Source of the DNA: Candidatus Kaiserbacteria bacterium RIFCSPHIGHO2_02_FULL_49_16
Lineage (GTDB): Bacteria; Patescibacteriota; Minisyncoccia; Phycocordibacterales; UBA2100
Length of the DNA stretch: 40,505 bases
NCBI GenBank assembly: GCA_001781465.1
Contig: MFLD01000031.1
Coordinates: 1-40,505 of the forward strand
Direction: 5' to 3'
A program made the position numbers and the translations under genes. Positions within the stretch are counted from its first letter, which is position 1, and every line of letters begins with the position of its first letter. The notes under the pieces were generated by a model. The model did no database searches and was not told the DNA's origin. It saw only the letters and a program-made list of their open reading frames with translations. Positions 1 to 39,551 of this stretch are shown here, one piece after another.

Positions 1-80
1 CCCGAAGCGTATCGCAGCTAAGCCGCGTCCTTCATCGCCCTTTAGAGTCAAGGCATCCACCGCACGCCCTTACTCAGAAC
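1..80 (-). rRNA. rrl: 23S rRNA, 5' terminal ~80 nt (gene runs off the left edge of the window)
   Basis: Reverse complement of 1-80 reads GTTCTGAGTAAGGGCGTGCGGTGGATGCCTTGACTCTAAAGGGCGATGAAGGACGCGGCTTAGCTGCGATACGCTTCGGG. This is the conserved bacterial 23S 5' region (GGTGGATGCCTTG ... GCGATGAAGGACG ... CTGCGATA). The 5' end is +-5 nt. No 16S or spacer tRNA within the 500 nt upstream. Confidence 0.85.
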
Positions 81-249
81 TCCCGTCAGGAATTCTGAGA
101 ACCGCGTGTTCTGCCCGCCACATTTTTAATGTGCCGGGACTTTTGTTGCCCATACTGTAGACGATACAGTATGAGTTCCTGCGTTGATGCGGTCTACACC
201 ACACCAACACTTTTGTTTGATTCTTTTGTCGTCAGCGCTCCGCGCGCCG

Positions 250-2208: not shown

Positions 2209-2339
2209 ACCCCGTTAGAAGTCTGTCTTAAGTGACTATTACGCTTTGTTTCTGACATACTTTGTTTTTTGCCATGTCCCCGCTAATTCAACGCAGAAAA
2301 AATCGCTCAATTTTTTCTGTCAAAGACTTCTAACGGGGT
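2209..2339. mobile_element. Copy E1 of the CCCCGTTAGA inverted-repeat element (intergenic)
   Basis: The 16-bp perfect arms ACCCCGTTAGAAGTCT (2209-2224) and AGACTTCTAACGGGGT (2324-2339) are separated by 99 nt. An inner AT-rich hairpin CAGAAAAAAT/ATTTTTTCTG lies at 2294-2319. The right arm abuts the stop codon of the 2340..2990 gene. Confidence 0.6.
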
Positions 2340-2990
2340 TCACTTAAGAACACCGGCTCGGTCGAGCAGAATCATGTTGGGGTAGTCCAAGATATCGCGA
2401 ATAAGGTGGTCTTGAATAGTAAGCCGATAGGAAAACTCCATGGTTCCAAATGTTGAATACCTTATTTCTCTCCCGTAGAGCGGTTCAAGCGATCTTATGG
2501 CATTTTCAAGGCGATTCTCGTTTAAATTATCGGCGACGACTATCAAATCCACAGGTCTAGTTACATCTCCCATAAAACATCCCGACGCTATAACGACGGA
2601 GAGACGGCCGGTATTTTTCAACACATCTAAAATATGATTGTATCGTATGGGAGAAATCTCGTGAACAAAAGAGGATAGGGCGCGCAGATACTTGAATTCC
2701 GGATCCAGAAACCAAGAATTTTCTTGTTTTGCGCCGTGACTTGTCTTTTTCCCGCGAGCACCTTTCCCCTTCTTTTTCGCTTGGACAACATCTTTTCCCC
2801 TCTTTATGATGCCCAATTTCTCCAGAATTTTAATTTCACGATTCGTTGATTGAGTGCTTAAGCCGGCGCGCTTGGCTAACTGAACAACTGTCAGAGGGTC
2901 CGACTTATCTGATTGATTGAATATGAATACGCGAACCAGCTTAGCTCTCGATTGATTGCCTAGAAATGCGACTAAAAAGTCCTCACCCAT
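2340..2990 (-). CDS. Winged-helix DNA-binding protein with an uncharacterised C-terminal domain
   Basis: 216-aa ORF with an ATG start. It has an N-terminal wHTH-like segment (LTVVQLAKRAGLSTQSTNREIKILEKLGIIKRGK), then a basic linker and a ~110-aa C-terminal domain. Confidence 0.6.
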   Translation of the reverse strand: MGEDFLVAFLGNQSRAKLVRVFIFNQSDKSDPLTVVQLAKRAGLSTQSTNREIKILEKLGIIKRGKDVVQAKKKGKGARGKKTSHGAKQENSWFLDPEFKYLRALSSFVHEISPIRYNHILDVLKNTGRLSVVIASGCFMGDVTRPVDLIVVADNLNENRLENAIRSLEPLYGREIRYSTFGTMEFSYRLTIQDHLIRDILDYPNMILLDRAGVLK

Positions 2991-3175: not shown

Positions 3176-3592
3176 TTACTTCAGAGTAACCTTACCCCCC
3201 GCTGTCTCAATTTTTTTCTTCCATTCCTCCGCTGTTTCCTTCTTTACTCCTTCTTTCAACATAGCGGGAGCGCTCTCTACCAAGTCCTTCGCCTCCTTTA
3301 ATCCAAGCGCGAGAACTTCTTTTACAACTTTGATTACCGCAATTTTCTGGTCTCCGACAGCAGTGAGTTCAACATTGAACTCGCTCTTGTCTTCTCCGGC
3401 CGCCGCCACTCCTCCTTCTGCCGGTCCGGCAACCGCCGCCTGAGCCGAAATGCCGAATTTCTTTTCCAATAATTTTACGAGTTCATTTAACTCCAACACT
3501 GTCATTTGTTCAACCTGCTCAACGAGCGCCTTGAACTTTGCTGGCACTTCCACGGACGCTTCAGTGGCTGGTGTAGTTTGTTCTTCTGTCAT
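3176..3592 (-). CDS. rplL: 50S ribosomal protein L7/L12
   Basis: 138 aa. Ala/Gly-rich hinge and C-terminal [27 protein letters not shown]...AGGKVTLK. Lies directly downstream of rplJ. Confidence 0.95.
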
Positions 3593-4149: not shown

Positions 4150-4380
4150 CTTAGAGATTCTTAATGAGCGTAGCGAATTTAGAAGCTCTTAGACCCCTCC
4201 CCAATTTAGCATCACACAAACCAATCCCAATTTCTATATTCTGTCGAGACTGTCTCAACCAACATGCAAGATTATAACTTTGGAACGGATGCGAAATTGG
4301 TGAGGGGTAAGAAAACCCGCTGCTCATATTTTTTAACAAGGCACTCGAGAGTTTCGACCTCGGCAAGCCTGACAAGAACA

Positions 4381-4450
4381 GGTTCTAGGTTCTAGGGGCT
4401 AGGTTCTAGGAGAATTCCCTGACACCTGGTCCCTGAAACCTGTCACCTGT
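4381..4450. repeat. Two abutting degenerate tandem tracts: GGTTCTAGG-type (4381-4410) and CCTG(A/T)CACCTG-type (4417-4450)
   Basis: ggttctaggttctaggggctaggttctagg, then ccctgacacctggtccctgaaacctgtcacctgt. They lie in the long untranslated region upstream of rplJ. Confidence 0.75.
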
Positions 4451-20188: not shown

Positions 20189-20668
20189 TTAGCAGCAATC
20201 TTTCATTTTATTCTCAATTTCTTCGATTGATTCTTCGCGCGAGTCCGTTCTGCTGTTTGAGGATAGGAACAAAGTTGATATAAGAACGAGAAAAACAGTA
20301 ATCAGGATGAGCGCACTCCACAACTGCAACAGAGCGCTGTATGCGGCCGCGAAGCCGGCAGGAATGAAGAGAGCTTTCCAGAGAAGAAGCGCGTCGGACG
20401 ACCCGCGGAATTTTCTCTTCAACCCCGTTAGAGGCCATGCCTCTAACGGGGCAAGCTGGTACGCAATTCCAATCACAGTTCCGCCCATAAGAAGCGCGGG
20501 CACTATCAAATTAATTTGATAGCCCAGGAAATGCGTGATAAGAAGCCCCGTCCATGTGAGAAACACCCCGGCGCAAATCGGGCAAACTGCAAATGGCAGA
20601 AAGCGGTTCGCGAGCCACACTAGAGCAGTAATGGCGAGAATTGAGATTACAGTGACAGCAATTAGCAT
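20189..20668 (-). CDS. Multi-pass membrane protein with a CPIC (CxxC) motif, carrying an internal hairpin insertion
   Basis: The ORF track gives 20189..20704. The ATG at 20668 (MLIAVTV) starts 5 nt after the upstream stop. It has AVCPICAGVFLTW, and a C-terminal CC. Confidence 0.6.
   Translation of the reverse strand: MLIAVTVISILAITALVWLANRFLPFAVCPICAGVFLTWTGLLITHFLGYQINLIVPALLMGGTVIGIAYQLAPLEAWPLTGLKRKFRGSSDALLLWKALFIPAGFAAAYSALLQLWSALILITVFLVLISTLFLSSNSRTDSREESIEEIENKMKDCC
20423..20451. mobile_element. Copy E2: minimal CCCCGTTAGAGG hairpin inside the CxxC membrane protein gene
   Basis: CCCCGTTAGAGG (20423-20434), loop ccatg, CCTCTAACGGGG (20440-20451). It is flanked by CAA on both sides and encodes PLEAWPLTG in the host frame. 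Confidence 0.6.
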
Positions 20669-20672
20669 AATT

Positions 20673-21503
20673 TCAGATGAAGAGAATAAGCGCGCCGAGA
20701 GCAATCATCGCTATGCCCGCGATGAGGCGAACGCGAGAAAGGTTGTCCCGTTTCCATTCCTGCATTTTGTCTACCACGGTTTTATCGGCAGAGAACCACA
20801 GGACGAGAATGAGAGGAACGATGAGAACGAGATTGTACAGAAGGAGATACCAGAATCCCGCGAGGTATGTTTGGCTGTCGCGAAGAAGCCCGATGACCAT
20901 TAAGTACGGCCCTCCCATGCACGGGAATTGGCAGACGCCGACCAATGCGCCGAGCCCAAATGCCGCCAAGACGGATGTCCTCTCCAATAGCTTCGCCATC
21001 GGACGATGCGCGATTTCCGGCATTTTGAGTTTAATCGGAATGTCCGGAAAGAATCGGTTCAATAGATTCACGATGCCGAAAATTATGAGAAGCGATGCGC
21101 CGAGCTTTCCCATAAAATGGGGAGTGTTGAAGAGATGCAAGACCTTGAGAAGGCCGAGACCTATTAGGAAGTATGACGCGAAGATGCCAGCGATATATAC
21201 TCCGCCGATTTGCAGAATTTTCTCGCGCGTAAGCTGGAGCCCGAACAGGAACGCTATCGTGATGAGGAGAATCGAGAACGAACACGGATGCACGCTGTCC
21301 AAGAGCGACGATATGAGCACAAGCGGAAGAAGCCACGCCCCGCTCCCGCTCGCGTTCCAGATAAGCGTTGATGTTGCGGGACTGAATTTCAGAATAATAA
21401 TTCCGAGAATGAATGCTCCAATGACGCCGGCGATGATGATAATTCGACGCATCCCGTTAGAGACAGGTCGCGGTCGTGTATTGTCTTCAGGTAATGTGTT
21501 CAT
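20673..21503 (-). CDS. CcdA/DsbD-family thiol:disulfide transfer membrane protein
   Basis: 276 aa, multi-pass, with conserved Cys in TM segments (LDSVHPCSFSILL and VCQFPCMGGPYL). The first 17 codons are encoded by element E3. The ancestral ATG is probably at 21452. Confidence 0.7.
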   Translation of the reverse strand: MNTLPEDNTRPRPVSNGMRRIIIIAGVIGAFILGIIILKFSPATSTLIWNASGSGAWLLPLVLISSLLDSVHPCSFSILLITIAFLFGLQLTREKILQIGGVYIAGIFASYFLIGLGLLKVLHLFNTPHFMGKLGASLLIIFGIVNLLNRFFPDIPIKLKMPEIAHRPMAKLLERTSVLAAFGLGALVGVCQFPCMGGPYLMVIGLLRDSQTYLAGFWYLLLYNLVLIVPLILVLWFSADKTVVDKMQEWKRDNLSRVRLIAGIAMIALGALILFI

Positions 21504-21567
21504 AGAGAGTGGAAGAGTCTTATATGCAATCTCGGTTAAGGATTGAGCGACCGTGGTCTCTAACGGG
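21453..21567. mobile_element. Copy E3: 115-bp inverted-repeat element with a 6-bp target-site duplication at the ccdA-like start codon
   Basis: Arms CCCGTTAGAGAC (21453-21464) and GTCTCTAACGGG (21556-21567). The direct repeat ACGCAT flanks both ends (21447-21452 and 21568-21573). Confidence 0.75.
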
Positions 21568-21574
21568 ACGCATA

Positions 21575-29821: not shown

Positions 29822-29894
29822 AGCCGCCTCCCAGACTCGAACTGGGGACCTTCACTTTACAAAAGTGTTGCTCTACCAACTGAGCTAAGGCGGC
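29822..29894 (-). tRNA. tRNA-Thr (anticodon UGU)
   Basis: The reverse complement is GCCGCCTTAGCTCAGTTGGTAGAGCAACACTTTTGTAAAGTGAAGGTCCCCAGTTCGAGTCTGGGAGGCGGCT. The cloverleaf has a 7-bp acceptor stem, a GCTC/GAGC D stem, the anticodon loop TTTGTAA and a CCCAG/CTGGG T stem with TTCGAGT. CCA is not encoded. Confidence 0.9.
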
Positions 29895-31062: not shown

Positions 31063-31857
31063 CTATTTGTAGGTATTCGTAGTATTCGTATCATTCGCAG
31101 ATTGGGACTTTGTCTTTCCTTTCTCGTATGCTTCCGCGATCGCATTCGCGACAAGTCGTATGCTTCGCACCGATGTATCGTTCGCGGGCACCGGATACTG
31201 CACTTGGGAAAAGTCGCAGTCGGAGCTGGAAAGGCCGATGACGGGAATGCCGAGCTGGTTCGCCTCGCGCACCGCTGTTTCCTCGCGCTTCGTGTCAACG
31301 ATGAAAAGCGCCGCCGGAAGTTCAAGCATCTTCACCAATCCGCCGAAGCGCGCGAGAAGCTCTGTGATTTCCCGGTCAATTAGCAGACGCTCTTTTTTCG
31401 TGTACTTCTCAAGCTCGCCCGAGTCGCGCTCGCTCATGTGCTTTTCCAATCGGTCAATGCGCTTGCGGATATTCTTAAAATTCGTGAGCGTGCCTCCTAT
31501 CCAGCGCCCGGCAACATAAGGTTCTCCTATGCGCGTGGCGACTTCTTTAACAATATCAACCGCTTCGTTCTTTCCGCCGACGAAGAGAAGCTGACGCGCA
31601 CCGCTCGCCTTTGCGCCTGTCTGCGGAGCCACAACGGCAGGAGTGTTTCCAGCGATAGAGCCCGCGAACGCGCATGCCGCTTCAAGCCGTCTCTGCGTTT
31701 CCTCAAGGTCAAAAATGTCGTTGCGGTCTTTGGTGCCAAAAATAAATGGCGAGGCCGTCGGATGGCGCCGCGTGCGCGAATAGCCAAAGTGCGCCCCCGC
31801 GTCAAATAGCGTTTTAATGTCTTGTGTTCCTGCCGTCACCCCATTAGAAGTTATCAT
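31063..31857 (-). CDS. rpsB: 30S ribosomal protein S2
   Basis: LFDAGAHFGYSRTRRHP, VGGKNEA and IVDTKREETAVREANQLGIPVIGL. The track start at 31896 is GTG. There is an ATG at 31857 (MITSNG) and an in-frame GTG at 31839. All three lie within or at the edge of element E5. Confidence 0.9.
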   Translation of the reverse strand: MITSNGVTAGTQDIKTLFDAGAHFGYSRTRRHPTASPFIFGTKDRNDIFDLEETQRRLEAACAFAGSIAGNTPAVVAPQTGAKASGARQLLFVGGKNEAVDIVKEVATRIGEPYVAGRWIGGTLTNFKNIRKRIDRLEKHMSERDSGELEKYTKKERLLIDREITELLARFGGLVKMLELPAALFIVDTKREETAVREANQLGIPVIGLSSSDCDFSQVQYPVPANDTSVRSIRLVANAIAEAYEKGKTKSQSANDTNTTNTYK

Positions 31858-31939
31858 GTTCGTGTATGTTATTTTCTTTGATTCTATAAGCACCACCTCG
31901 TCGCGCTAAAATCGCGTGTTTGCTGAACTTCAAACGGGG
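31839..31939. mobile_element. Copy E5: inverted-repeat element enclosing the rpsB start codon
   Basis: Arms CCCCATTAGAAGT (31839-31851) and ACTTCAAACGGGG (31927-31939) are 11/13 complementary. On the coding strand the arm reads ACT TCT AAT GGG (T S N G). Confidence 0.55.
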
Positions 31940-32041
31940 CAGGTGTCGCGGGAGTGTATCAAGAAAGCGATGATTTTGCAACCAAAATTGGAAAGGTGCG
32001 CTACTACGAGTTCGCGCACCTTTTTTCCAGAACTGCCGACA

Positions 32042-36468: not shown

Positions 36469-36750
36469 ATGAGAGAGCGGGAACCGAATCGGCTGACATT
36501 CTCGCCATGGTTTGAGAAAATACTCCGAACGCTTAAAAGAAAGAATCCGAATTTGGTGCGTGCATTTGCAAAGCACCTCCCCAAGGTCGTTGCGAATCCC
36601 GAACTTGGTAAGCCGTTGCGGCATTCTTTGCGAAACTACCGCCGCATTCATATTGAAGGTTCATTTGTCCTTTTATATGAGATACGGGAACGCGAAGTAT
36701 ACCTGATTGACCTCGACCATCACGATAGAGTGTATAAAAAGTACTCATAG
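36469..36750 (+). CDS. Type II toxin, RelE/ParE family
   Basis: 93 aa. ...GKPLRHSLRNYRRIHIEGSFVLLYEIREREVYLIDLDHHDRVY is the typical RelE/ParE C-terminal half. Confidence 0.7.
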   Translation: MREREPNRLTFSPWFEKILRTLKRKNPNLVRAFAKHLPKVVANPELGKPLRHSLRNYRRIHIEGSFVLLYEIREREVYLIDLDHHDRVYKKYS

Positions 36751-36789
36751 TTTGGCATTTGCTGGCGTTGTAACGGGGGCAGGGCATAG

Positions 36790-37849: not shown

Positions 37850-37878
37850 TTGACACGAAAACGATTCTCGCCTATTTT
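37850..37878 (+). promoter_or_regulatory. Sigma70-like promoter of the leu operon
   Basis: TTGACA (37850-37855), 17 nt, TATTTT (37873-37878), 6 nt, ATG of the leader peptide (37885). Confidence 0.65.
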
Positions 37879-37884
37879 GATGCT

Positions 37885-37956
37885 ATGACTGCACGATATT
37901 CAACAACACAAAAAGGTCTCCTTCTCCTTGCGCTTACACTACACTGCGAGGGGTAA
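37885..37956 (+). CDS. Leucine-rich leader peptide (23 aa) of the leu operon
   Basis: MTARYSTTQKGLLLLALTLHCEG. There are six Leu in eight codons (CTC CTT CTC CTT gcg CTT aca CTA). It sits between the promoter and a terminator hairpin upstream of leuC. Confidence 0.6.
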   Translation: MTARYSTTQKGLLLLALTLHCEG

Positions 37957-37984
37957 TCCTGTTGCTCAAAATCAAGAGAAAACA

Positions 37985-38016
37985 AGACCTGGCCTCTCGC
38001 AAGAGAGGCTAGGTCT
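37985..38016 (+). terminator. Attenuator terminator hairpin in the leu leader
   Basis: AGACCTGGCCTCTC-gcaa-GAGAGGCTAGGTCT is a 14-bp stem with one G.U pair, followed by GTTATATT. GAGGGG at the leader-peptide stop could pair with CCTCTC as an anti-terminator. Confidence 0.55.
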
Positions 38017-38059
38017 GTTATATTAGTAATAAACCCAGGTATGACAAAAGAGAAAACAA

Positions 38060-38169
38060 CCCCATTAGAAATCGCGGACGCGCATCGTCAAGAAATTGTA
38101 TGAACAGCAAACCAAAACAACATAATCGAGCTAAGAAACCAGCCAGTGCGCGTCCTATTTCTAACGGGG
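38060..38169. mobile_element. Copy E4: 110-bp inverted-repeat element inserted in codon 7 of leuC
   Basis: Arms CCCCATTAGAAAT (38060-38072) and ATTTCTAACGGGG (38157-38169). Its interior shares TCGCGG(A/T)CG(C/T)G(C/T)AT(C/T)GTC with E3. Removing 38060-38169 joins the ATG at 38041 in frame to ...GQTLYEKIWDAHVV. Confidence 0.75.
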
Positions 38170-39551
38170 CAGGCCAAACACTGTATGAAAAGATATGGGA
38201 TGCGCATGTAGTGCGCGAGGCCGCGGGTGAACCTACTATATTGTATATAGACCTGCACTTGATTCACGAGGTGACTACCCCGCAGGCGTTCACCGGATTG
38301 CGTAACCGCAAGTTGCCCGTTCGCCGGACAGACCTCACCATCGCGACCATGGACCACTCGGTGCCATCCGCCAATCGAAAGAAACTTCCGTGGCCCGATG
38401 TGATGGCGCAAAAACAAGTTGAGATGCTGGATGCCAACTGCAAAAAGCACGGCATCACTCTTTACGACCTTGGAAGCAAGCACCAGGGCATAGTGCATAT
38501 CATCGGACCAGAGCTTGGGCTCACTCAACCTGGCAAAACAATCGTGTGCGGAGACAGCCACACTTCCACTCACGGCGCGTTCGGAGCGCTGGCTTTCGGA
38601 ATTGGAACTTCGGAAGTGGAGCATGTTTTCGCCACGCAGTGCCTGCTTCAGAACAAAACAAAAACCATGGCAATTACAGTAAATGGCACTTTGCCGAAAG
38701 GAGTTTTCTCAAAAGACATAATCTTGAGAATCATAAATGAGATAGGAATAGGCGGAGGAACCGGCTACACATTTGAGTATCGCGGAAGCGCGATTCGCGC
38801 TTTGAGCATGGAGGCGCGCATGACCATCTGCAATATGTCTATTGAGGCGGGAGCGCGCGCGGGGATGGTTGCTCCAGACCAAACTACAGTTGACTACCTA
38901 GAGAAACGGGTAAAATTCGCAAGTGCCGAAGAAAGAGAGCGCGTGAAAGCATCGTGGCTGAAATGGAAATCGGACGAAGGCGCGATGTTCGATAAAGAAG
39001 TAATTATTGATGCGGATACAATCGAACCAATGGTTACTTGGGGAACAAATCCGGGAATGTCCGTAGGAATAACTCAAAAAATCCCAAAGGCCGAGAGCGA
39101 GGATGTAAAGAAAGCCCTCGAATATATGGGCTTGCAAGGAGGACAGAAGATGGCCGGCCAGCCGATACAATTCGTATTCATCGGGAGTTGCACGAATTCC
39201 CGTATCGAAGACTTGCGTATCGCTTCCAAAATAATGAATGGTAAGAAAATCGCCAAAGGCGTTACCGCTTATGTAGTGCCGGGTTCTCAAGAAGTGAAAA
39301 GCGAAGCGGAATCCGAAGGGTTGGACAAAGTGTTTTTGTCCGCGGGTTGCGAGTGGCGAGAGCCAGGGTGCAGTATGTGCATCGGAATGAATGGCGACTT
39401 GGTGCCATCGGGAAAATATTGCGCGTCTACCTCAAACAGAAATTTCATCGGCCGGCAAGGGCGAGGCGCGCGCACGCTTCTTATGTCCCCCGCGATGGCG
39501 GCAGTCGCGGCCATTGAAGGAACCGTCGGCGACGCGCGAAAATTCGTATGA
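38100..39551 (+). CDS. leuC: 3-isopropylmalate dehydratase large subunit
   Basis: TLYEKIWDAHVV..., DLHLIHEVTTPQAF, GDSHTSTHGAFGALAFGIGTSE and CSMCIGMNGD. The present ATG (38100) and the first 23 codons lie inside element E4. Confidence 0.93.
   Translation: MNSKPKQHNRAKKPASARPISNGAGQTLYEKIWDAHVVREAAGEPTILYIDLHLIHEVTTPQAFTGLRNRKLPVRRTDLTIATMDHSVPSANRKKLPWPDVMAQKQVEMLDANCKKHGITLYDLGSKHQGIVHIIGPELGLTQPGKTIVCGDSHTSTHGAFGALAFGIGTSEVEHVFATQCLLQNKTKTMAITVNGTLPKGVFSKDIILRIINEIGIGGGTGYTFEYRGSAIRALSMEARMTICNMSIEAGARAGMVAPDQTTVDYLEKRVKFASAEERERVKASWLKWKSDEGAMFDKEVIIDADTIEPMVTWGTNPGMSVGITQKIPKAESEDVKKALEYMGLQGGQKMAGQPIQFVFIGSCTNSRIEDLRIASKIMNGKKIAKGVTAYVVPGSQEVKSEAESEGLDKVFLSAGCEWREPGCSMCIGMNGDLVPSGKYCASTSNRNFIGRQGRGARTLLMSPAMAAVAAIEGTVGDARKFV

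Follow-up and report, generated by a model that had tools for sequence, protein, structure and literature searches.

A MITE-like inverted-repeat element in the 5' end of leuC of a Kaiserbacteria genome and the family of short hairpins to which it belongs

In a Kaiserbacteria (CPR) genome, leuC has very probably been hit in its lysine-rich N-terminal tail by a non-autonomous MITE that severed the gene from its original start codon. The evidence comes from the anatomy of the element (E3), from orthologous alleles with and without it, and from further copies with the same termini, in the window (the whole stretch of DNA analysed, 40,505 nt) and beyond it.

The leuC element and its filled and empty alleles

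The leuC region of the window carries the following features.

37885-37956, plus strand: leu leader peptide (...GLLLLALTLHCEG), part of the upstream context 37885..38016
37985-38016, plus strand: terminator-like hairpin; promoter-like and terminator-like sites are predicted upstream of leuC
38041..38103, plus strand: relic of the ancestral leuC start, ATG plus six codons, now a 20-codon uORF (MTKEKTTPLEIADAHRQEIV, then stop), from the ORF list, translation, and alignment to the start codons of empty alleles
38060..38169, no strand: E3, a 110-nt non-coding inverted-repeat (MITE-like) element at codon 7 of ancestral leuC, from its arms, predicted stem, and element-less orthologous alleles
38060..38083, plus strand: left terminal inverted repeat of E3, CCCCATTAGAAATCGCGGACGCGC, pairing with 38146-38169 in the predicted fold
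38146..38169, plus strand: right terminal inverted repeat of E3, GCGCGTCCTATTTCTAACGGGG, translated as ..ARPISNG in LeuC
38100..39551, plus strand: present leuC ORF, 483 aa, first 23 codons element-encoded, matching Pfam Aconitase and LeuC homologues

The arms that the first-pass annotation had placed at 38060-38072 (CCCCATTAGAAAT, left) and 38157-38169 (ATTTCTAACGGGG, right) are indeed there. They are complementary at 12 of 13 positions, and pairing continues via GGACGCGC/GCGCGTCC to give arms of about 24 nt, with a predicted stem of -35.8 kcal/mol (z = -4.9). E3 fits the family pattern CCCCRTTAGAA...TTCTAAYGGGG; its extended left arm recurs in L050 (Giovannonibacteria), L017 (Saccharibacteria), and L006, and its right arm is read as TCT AAC GGG, like that of other gene-start copies. 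The interior has no ORF apart from the fused leuC head, and no SD or promoter consensus is carried within E3.

The 310-nt E3 region was identical in five independent assemblies (L001-L005), and a diverged copy occupied the same leuC site in L006 and L131; together these observations contradict an assembly artefact, a possibility that had been raised at the outset. A scan of metagenomes for the leuC junction returned one further contig only, L131, from the lineage of L006. Empty alleles, which it had been proposed to seek in relatives, were found in L007, L008, and L009. They start exactly at the position of the ATG at 38041, in line with the claim of an insertion into the ancestral 5' end of leuC, and their LeuC N-termini are lysine-rich heads of 7-10 aa (e.g., MTTKNKAKTLYEK). 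L007 and L008 share a conserved, syntenic leader upstream of leuC.

When LeuC orthologues were aligned, the E3-type N-terminal extension turned out to be limited to two homologues, P0001 and P0003; the closest orthologues (core identity about 80-88%) have no arms, and in most of them TLYEK is preceded by only 7-16 residues. This distribution argues against the view that no insertion took place and that the extension and repeat are native to LeuC and specific to its lineage, as does the membership of the arms in a multicopy family with TSDs. LeuC N-termini nevertheless vary within the clade; P0011, P0017, P0019, and P0032 carry extensions of 16-59 aa. The same view would also allow leuC to be a decaying pseudogene, but the gene is full length, 96% conserved relative to its nearest relative, and shows an excess of synonymous change. 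Its identity to leuC of L002 is 96.2% at the amino acid level and 88.8% at third positions, and we therefore regard leuC as being under purifying selection; leuD, leuA, and leuB are intact downstream (leuCDAB operon). We find an explanation without insertion, in either form, barely credible.

Reading frames, translation, and spread of the filled allele

The 20-codon uORF, the overlap of its TGA (38101-38103) with the ATG at 38100 as gtATGAac, and the 23 element-derived codons ending in RPISNG, all described at first pass, were confirmed in the window. Upstream of the conserved TLYEK, the leuC frame holds a single canonical start (ATG, GTG, or TTG), the element-borne ATG at 38100; between 38100 and TLYEK, no in-frame ATG, GTG, or TTG was found.

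Deletion of 38060-38169 in silico gives the in-frame product MTKEKTTGQTLYEKIWDAHVV..., so the frame restoration that had been claimed holds in the window. It fails in L006 and L131, where the head measures 18 nt versus 19 nt in the window and the corresponding deletion puts the upstream ATG in the wrong frame, so exact restoration is not robust. E3 itself is flanked by ACAA on the left and CAGG on the right, with no recognisable 4-bp duplication, and removal of E3 plus a 4-bp TSD (114 nt) does not restore the leuC frame. Since E3 has no recognisable duplication and the frame does not match in L006/L131, the precise ancestral junction is beyond reconstruction; the tidy restoration in the window may have arisen by coincidence, at odds of 1 in 3, with drift thereafter.

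The exact restoration in the window, and the strong stem that joins both junctions, could be taken to mean that the leuC transcript loses E3, or that ribosomes bypass it, and that the ancestral N-terminus MTKEKTTGQTLYEK is still made. We consider this very improbable. E3 matches no ribozyme or intron family in Rfam, the deletion in L006 is out of frame, the TSDs of the family are a hallmark of DNA transposons, and insertions elsewhere rebuild the start codon in unspliced sequence. Furthermore, both lineages preserve an ATG and leave the frame open across the element, L006 retaining the ATG and an open 110-nt element despite eight non-synonymous changes in the extension.

If a MITE was inserted, as we prefer, LeuC translation would start from the ATG of E3 at 38100, proceed through the right arm (..RPISNG), and enter the conserved TLYEKIWDAHVV core; the new start would add a basic N-terminal extension of about 23 aa. 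Shine-Dalgarno sequences are rarely used in the host genome, and the predicted fold places this ATG in an A-rich, largely unpaired stem-loop interior, where ribosomes could plausibly reach it directly. In the window lineage, ribosomes entering at the old ATG (38041) would translate the 20-codon relic uORF and melt the left arm, and termination on the ATGA overlap would favour reinitiation at 38100. Both the choice of ATG and the reinitiation step are inferred, and ribosomes that terminate the uORF on ATGA probably help LeuC initiation. The stop/restart junction first described for the element is a property of the window lineage; it is missing in L006, whose uORF ends at a TAG within the left arm and in which the ATGA overlap is not conserved. 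Upstream, the leader peptide and the terminator-like hairpin look like a leucine attenuator that would feed transcripts into the uORF and leuC, and this leader/attenuator-like context is conserved in L007, L008, and L131.

The history of the locus is complicated by the fact that L006 is filled yet closest to the empty L007. Independent insertion or repeated precise excision was considered, and the segment-wise comparison favoured recombination. In alignment columns 580-720 (beginning about 250 nt into leuC), L006 matches L007 at 99.3% identity, and in the leader's 3' half it matches the window at 97.6%; the leuC locus is therefore a recombination mosaic, and we infer that the filled allele spread among Kaiserbacteria lineages via homologous recombination.

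The family in the window and in other genomes

Five family copies lie in the 40.5 kb of the window, E3 and the following four.

2210..2338, no strand: E1, 129 nt, intergenic, perfect TSD TTCA, from arm scan and fold; of a subfamily of about 130 nt common to L038 and L067
20423..20451, no strand: E0, a 29-nt hairpin of two 13-nt arms and a 3-nt loop, from filled and empty alleles at the DNA level
21452..21568, no strand: E4, 117 nt, T/A-ended subfamily, perfect TSD TGCG, at the start codon of a DsbD_TM-like gene (minus strand)
31839..31939, no strand: E2, 101 nt, at the start codon of rpsB (minus strand), from empty alleles

The duplication of E1 contains the stop TGA of a MarR-like gene (2340-2990, minus strand). 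E0 plus its 4-bp TSD makes a 33-nt in-frame insertion of 11 codons (LAPLEAWPLTG) in a small CxxC membrane protein (20189-20704, minus strand), its TSD, CTTG, being confirmed by clean pairs of filled and empty alleles. Empty sites for the E0 membrane protein and the E4 DsbD-like gene were found in L133 and L134 and confirmed the TSD of E4, whose terminal A plus TG rebuilds the ATG of the DsbD_TM-like gene. At E2, GGGG/TGAC supplies a GTG in frame with S2 (rpsB); the empty rpsB alleles of L008 and L009 read ...CGCGACATGACGG....

The 13-mer arm motif, with up to two mismatches, occurred seven times in the window versus a shuffle mean of 1.8 (0 of 100 shuffles reached seven), and its 10-mer core 11 times versus 2.4 expected. 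The predicted folds of all five window copies are strongly stabilised (z from -3 to -7.6), and none of the five matched an Rfam 15 covariance model at the gathering score or at E <= 5.

The search for further copies that had been suggested thus yielded the four others in the window and, in a paired-arm scan of GTDB genomes covering arm gaps up to 600 nt, at least 119 loci, where about 4 would be expected by chance if base composition is assumed uniform. About 62 extra copies were present within the fetched loci, besides the seed matches. The copies range from 26 nt to about 280 nt, and their hosts include CPR, Omnitrophota, Planctomycetota, Deltaproteobacteria, Nitrospirae, and others. Termini are the same in the 121 scanned copies and in the five of the window; the 11-13-nt arms are common to genomes labelled with about nine phyla, whereas interiors are unrelated and the termini alone are shared. 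The CPR setting emphasised earlier is therefore correct for the host of E3 and too narrow for the family, which spans many phyla. Viral contigs scanned with the paired-arm pattern gave 0 matches and no sign of a phage vector.

Perfect 4-bp direct repeats, usually TNNA, flank 73 of 121 copies, compared with 0/121 at an offset control, and about 85% of the copies show T/A at flank positions -4/-1 and +1/+4. The description of E3 as MITE-like accordingly gains from its terminal inverted repeats, the lack of an ORF, the many copies, the TSDs of the family, and the empty sites, with the reservation that a TSD is missing at E3 itself. A GGGG/CAGG junction in place of the expected duplication was recurrent (E2, E3/L006, L022, L076).

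Many copies sit on gene boundaries. At 20-23 of 121 copies, an ORF of 100 codons or more is opened by the element's last G together with TG, against a background in which 0.35% of TNNA sites overlap the start of such an ORF. Host genes mostly have no SD motif and often start ATGAA or ATGGA, which makes TGAA and TGGA natural targets. Insertion at a start codon converts N/TGNA into ...GGGG/TGNA and gives GTG (ATG in the T/A-ended subfamily), insertion at a stop codon places TAA or TGA within the duplication, and very short copies can occur as in-frame hairpins inside protein loops. Copies are tolerated in compact genomes because they are located where the duplication rebuilds the gene end. An in-frame internal ATG as a feature of the family was considered and set aside, being only weakly enriched (7 of 20 start-adjacent copies versus 34 of 222 controls; Fisher p = 0.054). 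The donation of a start codon, as proposed for leuC, therefore applies to the ATG of E3 and is no built-in trait of the family, in which the usual route is a GTG made from the terminal G and the duplicated TG.

Pfam scans of 30 window ORFs revealed no transposase, and a search between long-range arm pairs (0.7-3.5 kb apart) across 0.94 Mb of element-bearing loci yielded no autonomous one. Candidate autonomous copies (distant arm pairs with matching duplications, or unpaired arms) proved to be adjacent MITEs or ribosomal-protein operons.

Arm conservation and comparison with known systems

The arms of E0 are identical at 26/26 positions in the window, L132, and L133, in a host gene that is about 68% identical, and only the middle loop base varies. 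This identity extends to third codon positions (P of about 3e-4 per pair), and the decapeptide encoded by the arms is invariant in eight filled orthologues. The arms of the leuC element differ at 1 of 48 positions; the coding sequence next to it diverges by about 14% and the interior of the element by 24%. The arms are much better conserved than a dead selfish insert should be, and something beyond passive tolerance may be acting on them.

It was unexpected to see arms stay identical at orthologous sites while their flanks diverge by about 30%.

One possible explanation is that the arms have a sequence-specific role at their present sites and that the leuC copy is a maintained regulatory module. 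Candidate roles are a site bound by a conserved protein, an mRNA stem linking the displaced initiation region to the start codon, and a stabilising or processing hairpin. Beside the figures for E0 and leuC just given, the retention of 11-13-nt arms across about nine phyla despite unrelated interiors, and the strength of the folds, argue for such a role. On the other hand, TSDs and filled/empty polymorphism identify the copies as insertions and not as ancestral regulatory sites, the copies lie in varied settings (gene starts, gene stops, inside ORFs), and a candidate partner protein was not found. The conservation could instead reflect recombinational spread of young filled alleles, as the mosaicism at leuC suggests, or selection against toxic half-sites during transposase activity. 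On balance we hold an arm role to be doubtful, with perhaps one chance in a few of being right.

The inserted MITE in leuC may be placed in a broader picture, which we put forward tentatively and think more likely wrong than right: minimal mobile hairpins, down to two 13-nt arms and different from ordinary decaying MITEs, would occur across phyla, integrate at TNNA sites so as to rebuild starts and stops, have their arms held by sequence-specific selection, and spread as filled alleles by recombination. If this is true, selection on the arms means that there is a conserved partner protein, or that the arms act at the RNA level in translation or mRNA fate. Arm conservation at orthologous sites, if confirmed, poses a directly testable mechanistic question. 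CPR genomes are small and gene-dense, and in this one a dense family (5 copies in 40 kb) persists because its insertions fall exactly on gene boundaries; for core genes (rpsB, leuC, the DsbD-like protein), this rewrites start codons and the N-termini of the proteins. For annotation, this means that gene callers will extend or mis-start many genes here; the right-arm motif xSNG flags such cases. The same ends of 11-13 nt in Patescibacteria, Planctomycetota, and Deltaproteobacteria alike mean either that a widely shared transposition machinery has gone unrecognised or that transfer across phyla is extensive in groundwater and sediment communities.

No account of the family was found in the literature on CPR/Patescibacteria MITEs, TNNA duplications, or IS1380-derived MITEs, and it is apparently undescribed. 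It resembles bacterial MITEs such as Neisseria Correia/NEMIS, MITEAba12, and Geobacter Chunjie, which are likewise small, non-coding, and multicopy, have terminal inverted repeats, flanking TSDs, and a stable hairpin, are polymorphic among relatives, and sit inside operons without breaking them. The CCCCRTTAGAA... arms and the 4-bp TNNA duplication, however, fit no described family to which they could be assigned; here the termini alone are shared, in copies of 26 to about 280 nt in many phyla with no parent IS found, and exact placement on start or stop codons is a strong habit.

A possible lead to the origin is the IS1380 family or the piggyBac superfamily, with CC(C)-initiated terminal repeats and a 4-bp duplication of the T...A type. 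The CCCC ends and the 4-bp TNNA duplication fit the criteria for an IS1380/piggyBac-derived MITE (CC-initiated terminal repeats, 4-5-bp duplication). PiggyBac duplicates TTAA and its terminal repeat begins CCCTAGAAAG, which the element ends CCCCGTTAGAAG resemble, a short likeness that could be due to chance; the difference is that no transposase of any kind was linked to the element ends in the loci searched.

REP/REPIN elements, mobilised by RAYT, are also abundant short hairpins, often at gene ends, and conserved well beyond neutral expectation. They make no target duplication and need a co-resident RAYT, whereas 4-bp duplications are the rule here, and no Y1_Tnp (RAYT) match was obtained among the window ORFs scanned. 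An integron attC site (RYYYAAC ... GTTRRRY) was rejected because the order of the core sites is reversed (GTTAGAA on the left, TTCTAAC on the right); an integrase is also absent, and housekeeping genes make up the flanks.

Rickettsia palindromic elements (RPEs), named at first pass as the nearest analogue, are palindromic selfish DNA tolerated within protein genes, to which they add peptide segments (PMC10969869). The likeness lies in the peptide added, 11 in-frame codons in the case of E0 and about 23 aa of LeuC in that of E3. By this description E3 is nevertheless set apart, since RPEs measure about 100-150 bp, lie in frame, and are confined to Rickettsia, while the host here belongs to Kaiserbacteria, E3 (110 nt, 2 mod 3) interrupts the frame, the upstream frame stops at 38101-38103, and the start codon is replaced; the present family also has clear terminal inverted repeats and TSDs. 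The analogy with RPEs covers the palindrome and the added peptide, and a precedent for a gene start donated by a repeat is that of the Neisseria REP2 and Borrelia IR repeats, which lie immediately upstream of genes and carry a promoter, a ribosome-binding site, and also the ATG as start codon (PMC3184786). In the family described here such donation is an occasional by-product, as at leuC, and the regular route is a GTG or ATG rebuilt from the last base of the element and the duplicated TG.

The element in leuC and how the gene is probably read

The first-pass annotation had proposed that a 110-nt MITE-like inverted-repeat element, E3 (38060-38169), interrupts codon 7 of an ancestral leuC gene. 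The features concerned are as follows.

Features of the leuC region
37850-37878, promoter-like site (TTGACA-17-TATTTT) upstream of leuC
37885-37956, leader peptide of 23 aa (MTARYSTTQKGLLLLALTLHCEG, C-terminal end GLLLLALTLHCEG) upstream of leuC
37985-38016, terminator-like hairpin, then a T-rich tail, upstream of leuC
38041-38103, 20-codon ORF (uORF)
38060-38072, left arm of E3 (CCCCATTAGAAAT)
38100-39551, leuC ORF of 483 aa
38157-38169, right arm of E3 (ATTTCTAACGGGG)

The two arms were confirmed to be complementary at 12/13 positions, and their pairing extends inward through GGACGCGC/GCGCGTCC to arms of ~24 nt, with a predicted stem-loop of -35.8 kcal/mol (z = -4.9). The ORF list likewise bore out the uORF opening at ATG 38041, whose TGA overlaps the leuC ATG, and the in-silico deletion of 38060-38169 joined the 38041 ATG to leuC, giving MTKEKTTGQTLYEKIWDAHVV. 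The leuC region with E3 is identical in five independent assemblies, which rules out the assembly artefact that had been a concern.

The nearest LeuC protein (P0001, 96% identity) carries the annotation Candidatus Kaiserbacteria. Of the 35 nearest LeuC proteins, P0001 and P0003 alone have the N-terminal extension (MNSKPKQHNRAKKPASARPISNGAGQ and MDTKTKQHNQAKTTVGARPISNGAGK); most others, at ~80-88% core identity, carry 7-16 lysine-rich residues ahead of TLYEK (e.g., MTTKNKAKTLYEK), and a few (P0013, P0017, P0019, P0021, P0025, and P0032) have unrelated longer N termini. Empty alleles were also recovered: the 110 nt are missing from L007, L008, and L009, and in the DNA alignment their start codons coincide exactly with ATG 38041. 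The promoter-like site, leader peptide, and terminator-like hairpin look like a classical leucine attenuator; this attenuator is conserved in L007, L008, and L131 (a sister-lineage allele carrying the element), in L007 and L008 the DNA of the leader and hairpin can be aligned to the window, and the downstream operon leuC-leuD-leuA-leuB is intact in the relatives.

Small palindromic insertions differing from E3 occur in the N-terminal tail of other leuC alleles of the Kaiserbacteria clade. That of P0019 (L129:3001-3075) has a 36-nt palindrome (CCCCTACTTCGCTCGCCG / CGGCGAGCTTCGAAGGG) directly after AAGAAAACAA, plus a 9-nt direct repeat, CAAGAAAAC, and that of P0017 (L130:1256-1440) has an in-frame insert of ~150 nt. 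The LeuC tail apparently accepts insertions readily.

Downstream of 38100, up to the conserved core, no further in-frame ATG, GTG, or TTG occurs, so LeuC would have to begin at the element-borne ATG, located in the A-rich, mostly unpaired interior of the predicted fold. Shine-Dalgarno (SD) motifs are uncommon in this genome, and confident window genes (e.g., those starting at 3592, 4149, 11394, and 13266) are nearly devoid of them. From the sequence we infer that initiation at 38100 would be direct and SD independent, with support from reinitiation in the window lineage, where the ancestral ATG now opens the uORF that enters the left arm and ends in the ATGA overlap: ribosomes translating it would open the stem, and termination-reinitiation would then boost initiation at 38100. 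In the sister lineage (L006/L131), the uORF has 8 codons and ends at a TAG within the left arm, while the element ATG and open frame are retained despite 8 nonsynonymous changes and 1 synonymous change, which argues that the coupling may be an add-on and not the core mechanism. The stop/restart junction put forward earlier is thus present in the window lineage but is not general. Purifying selection on leuC continues, as amino acid identity to L002 is 96.2% against 88.8% at third positions.

The in-frame restoration, too, holds for the window lineage but is not robust. The flanks of E3 (ACAA and CAGG) show no recognizable duplication, removal of E3 plus 4 bp does not restore the frame, and in L006 the frame is not restored by deleting these 110 nt. 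Since the relic leuC head is free to drift, the exact ancestral junction is irrecoverable.

Over the whole of leuC, the filled allele L006 is nearest to the empty L007 (92.7% amino acid and 72.6% third-position identity) and more distant from the window (85.2% and 56.2%). A comparison by segment accounts for this pattern.

Identity of L006 to the window and to L007 by segment
Leader 3' half (alignment columns 100-183): window 97.6%, L007 85.5%
First ~250 nt of leuC past the element (columns 329-580): window 85.5-87.5%, L007 82.5-84.0%
Columns 580-720, starting ~250 nt into leuC: window 79.3%, L007 99.3%
Columns 720-855: window 76.3%, L007 89.6%

The leuC 5' region of L006/L131 is therefore a recombination mosaic of L007-like and window-like segments, and L006 and the window share 85% identity over E3, in line with its immediate flanks. 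Both observations point to movement of the filled allele between lineages by homologous recombination, a likelier course than a second insertion at this site or excision on several occasions.

A dispersed family with target duplications

Four more pairs with the termini of E3 (CCCCRTTAGAA...TTCTAAYGGGG) were found in the window, with mutually unrelated interiors.

Other copies and RNA genes in the window
2210-2338, E1, 129 nt
20423-20451, E0, 29 nt
21452-21568, E4, 117 nt
31839-31939, E2, 101 nt
1-83 (-), truncated 23S rRNA gene, within whose 5' end the window begins (E = 6e-10, below the Rfam gathering score owing to the truncation)
29822-29894 (-), one tRNA gene

When one genome from each GTDB species was scanned with the pattern CCCCRTTAGAAN{79,109}TTCTAAYGGGG, at least 119 stretches matched, with ~4 chance matches estimated under uniform composition. 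The expected further copies thus exist, and restriction to CPR hosts did not hold.

Loci among the 119 matches listed, by database label
CPR/Patescibacteria (many classes), 57
Deltaproteobacteria / Desulfobacterota, 18
Unclassified, 16
Omnitrophota, 10
Planctomycetota, 10
Bdellovibrionales, 2
Nitrospirae, 2
Edwardsbacteria, 2
Elusimicrobia, 1
Stahlbacteria, 1

Among the matches listed, a perfect 4-bp direct repeat flanks 73 of 121 copies, against 0/121 at an offset control, with the consensus TNNA (TTTA, TAAA, TTCA, TGAA, TTGA, and TCAA). Such repeats are target-site duplications, which makes the family members transposed DNA elements. Sizes range from arms-only hairpins of 26-33 nt, also flanked by duplications, up to ~280 nt. 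Extended arms are common to subfamily members across CPR classes; E3, L050 (Giovannonibacteria), and L017 (Saccharibacteria) have ATCGCGGACGC...GCGTCCTAT.

Several independent copies have, on one flank, a GGGG/CAGG junction in place of the expected duplication (window 38166-38173 and 31936-31943, L022:1231-1238, and L076:6541-6548). At 36768-36778 (also in L002-L005) there is a lone half-site resembling the right arm, TTGTAACGGGG and then GCAGGGCA, just downstream of a ParE-like toxin ORF (36469-36750); no partner arm for it was found. The Nitrospirae contig L076 (6516-7100) carries several 29- to 33-nt hairpin copies. Two of these, identical to each other (CCCCGTTAGAAGCGCAGCCTCTAACGGGG) and in their flanks, are separated by ~207 nt, as if the segment had been duplicated in tandem.

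Placement on gene starts and stops, and constancy of the arms

At 20-23 of the 121 copies among the matches listed, the last G and the duplicated TG form a GTG opening an ORF of 100 codons or more, whereas just 0.35% of TNNA sites coincide with a start of this kind. A stop codon lies inside or adjoins the duplication at 16 of the 121. Second codons in window genes are often AAx or GAA, and the resulting ATGAA or ATGGA starts are ready-made TGAA/TGGA targets.

In rpsB, the sequence is CGCGAC ATG ACG G... in empty alleles, and the window junction after E2, GGGG/TGACGGCAGG, yields GTG ACG GCA in frame; on the gene-upstream side, CCTG replaces TGAC of the empty alleles. E4 has a perfect duplication in a DsbD_TM-like gene (empty ...ATGCGCCGG..., window A TGCG (TCCC...GGGA) TGCG TCG), and the terminal A found in its T/A-ended subfamily restores the ATG. 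E0 lies in a small CxxC membrane protein gene (empty CAG CTTG AGAAG, filled CAG CTTG (29 nt) CTTG AGAAA) as a 33-nt in-frame insertion adding LAPLEA(W/R)PLTG to a loop, and orthologues are 159-160 aa long with the insertion and 148-149 aa long without it. E1 sits directly 3' of a MarR-like gene stop, with the TGA, read on the minus strand, inside the TTCA duplication.

L007, empty at leuC, has its own 228-nt T/A-ended copy directly 3' of leuD (4169-4396; flanks TGAA and TGGA), whose terminal A and the next TG form the ATG of the following ORF (ATG GAT ATC ...). A copy between rplC and rplD, within a ribosomal-protein operon of an unclassified bacterium (L108:1338-1441), shows tolerance within highly expressed operons.

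Start-adjacent copies show only slight enrichment of in-frame internal ATGs (7/20 versus 34/222; P = 0.054), so that start donation in leuC is an accident kept by selection and not, as first suggested, part of the family's design.

The 13-nt arms of E0 are identical at 26/26 positions, third codon positions included, in three lineages (window, L132, and L133) whose host gene has ~68% DNA identity (P ~3e-4 per pair); the sole variable is the middle loop base (ATG, AAG, or ACG). Between L006 and the window, the E3 arms differ at 1/48 positions, the interior is 76% identical, and adjacent coding sequence ~86%. Such constancy would not be expected of a dead selfish insert. Candidate explanations are a constraint from the host or a partner protein, selection against half-sites during transposase activity, and recombinational spread of young alleles.

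Relation to known systems

Beyond the leuC insertion, the broader outcome is the family, for which we found no description in the literature. The core inference of the first-pass annotation stood, with corrections to frame restoration, generality of the restart junction, start donation as design, and host range. The family is a cross-phylum set of minimal hairpin transposons flanked by 4-bp duplications, a MITE variant. Its members regenerate starts and stops of genes and extend core proteins by peptide segments, and their arms are unusually constant. The CC-initiated ends and 4-bp T...A duplication are reminiscent of IS1380 / piggyBac, a possible relationship. REP/REPIN and attC identities failed on the tested features.

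E3 works like a MITE, with terminal inverted repeats, a multicopy family with target duplications, and empty-site alleles; a parent IS was not found for the family, either in the window or between arm pairs 0.7-3.5 kb apart in 0.94 Mb of element-bearing loci, and a duplication is missing at the E3 copy. E3 differs from RPE in being out of frame, in its host, and in its terminal repeats and the family's duplications, whereas the in-frame copy E0 behaves like one (PMC10969869). For a repeat bearing a gene's ATG, REP2 and Borrelia IR repeats offer precedent (PMC3184786).
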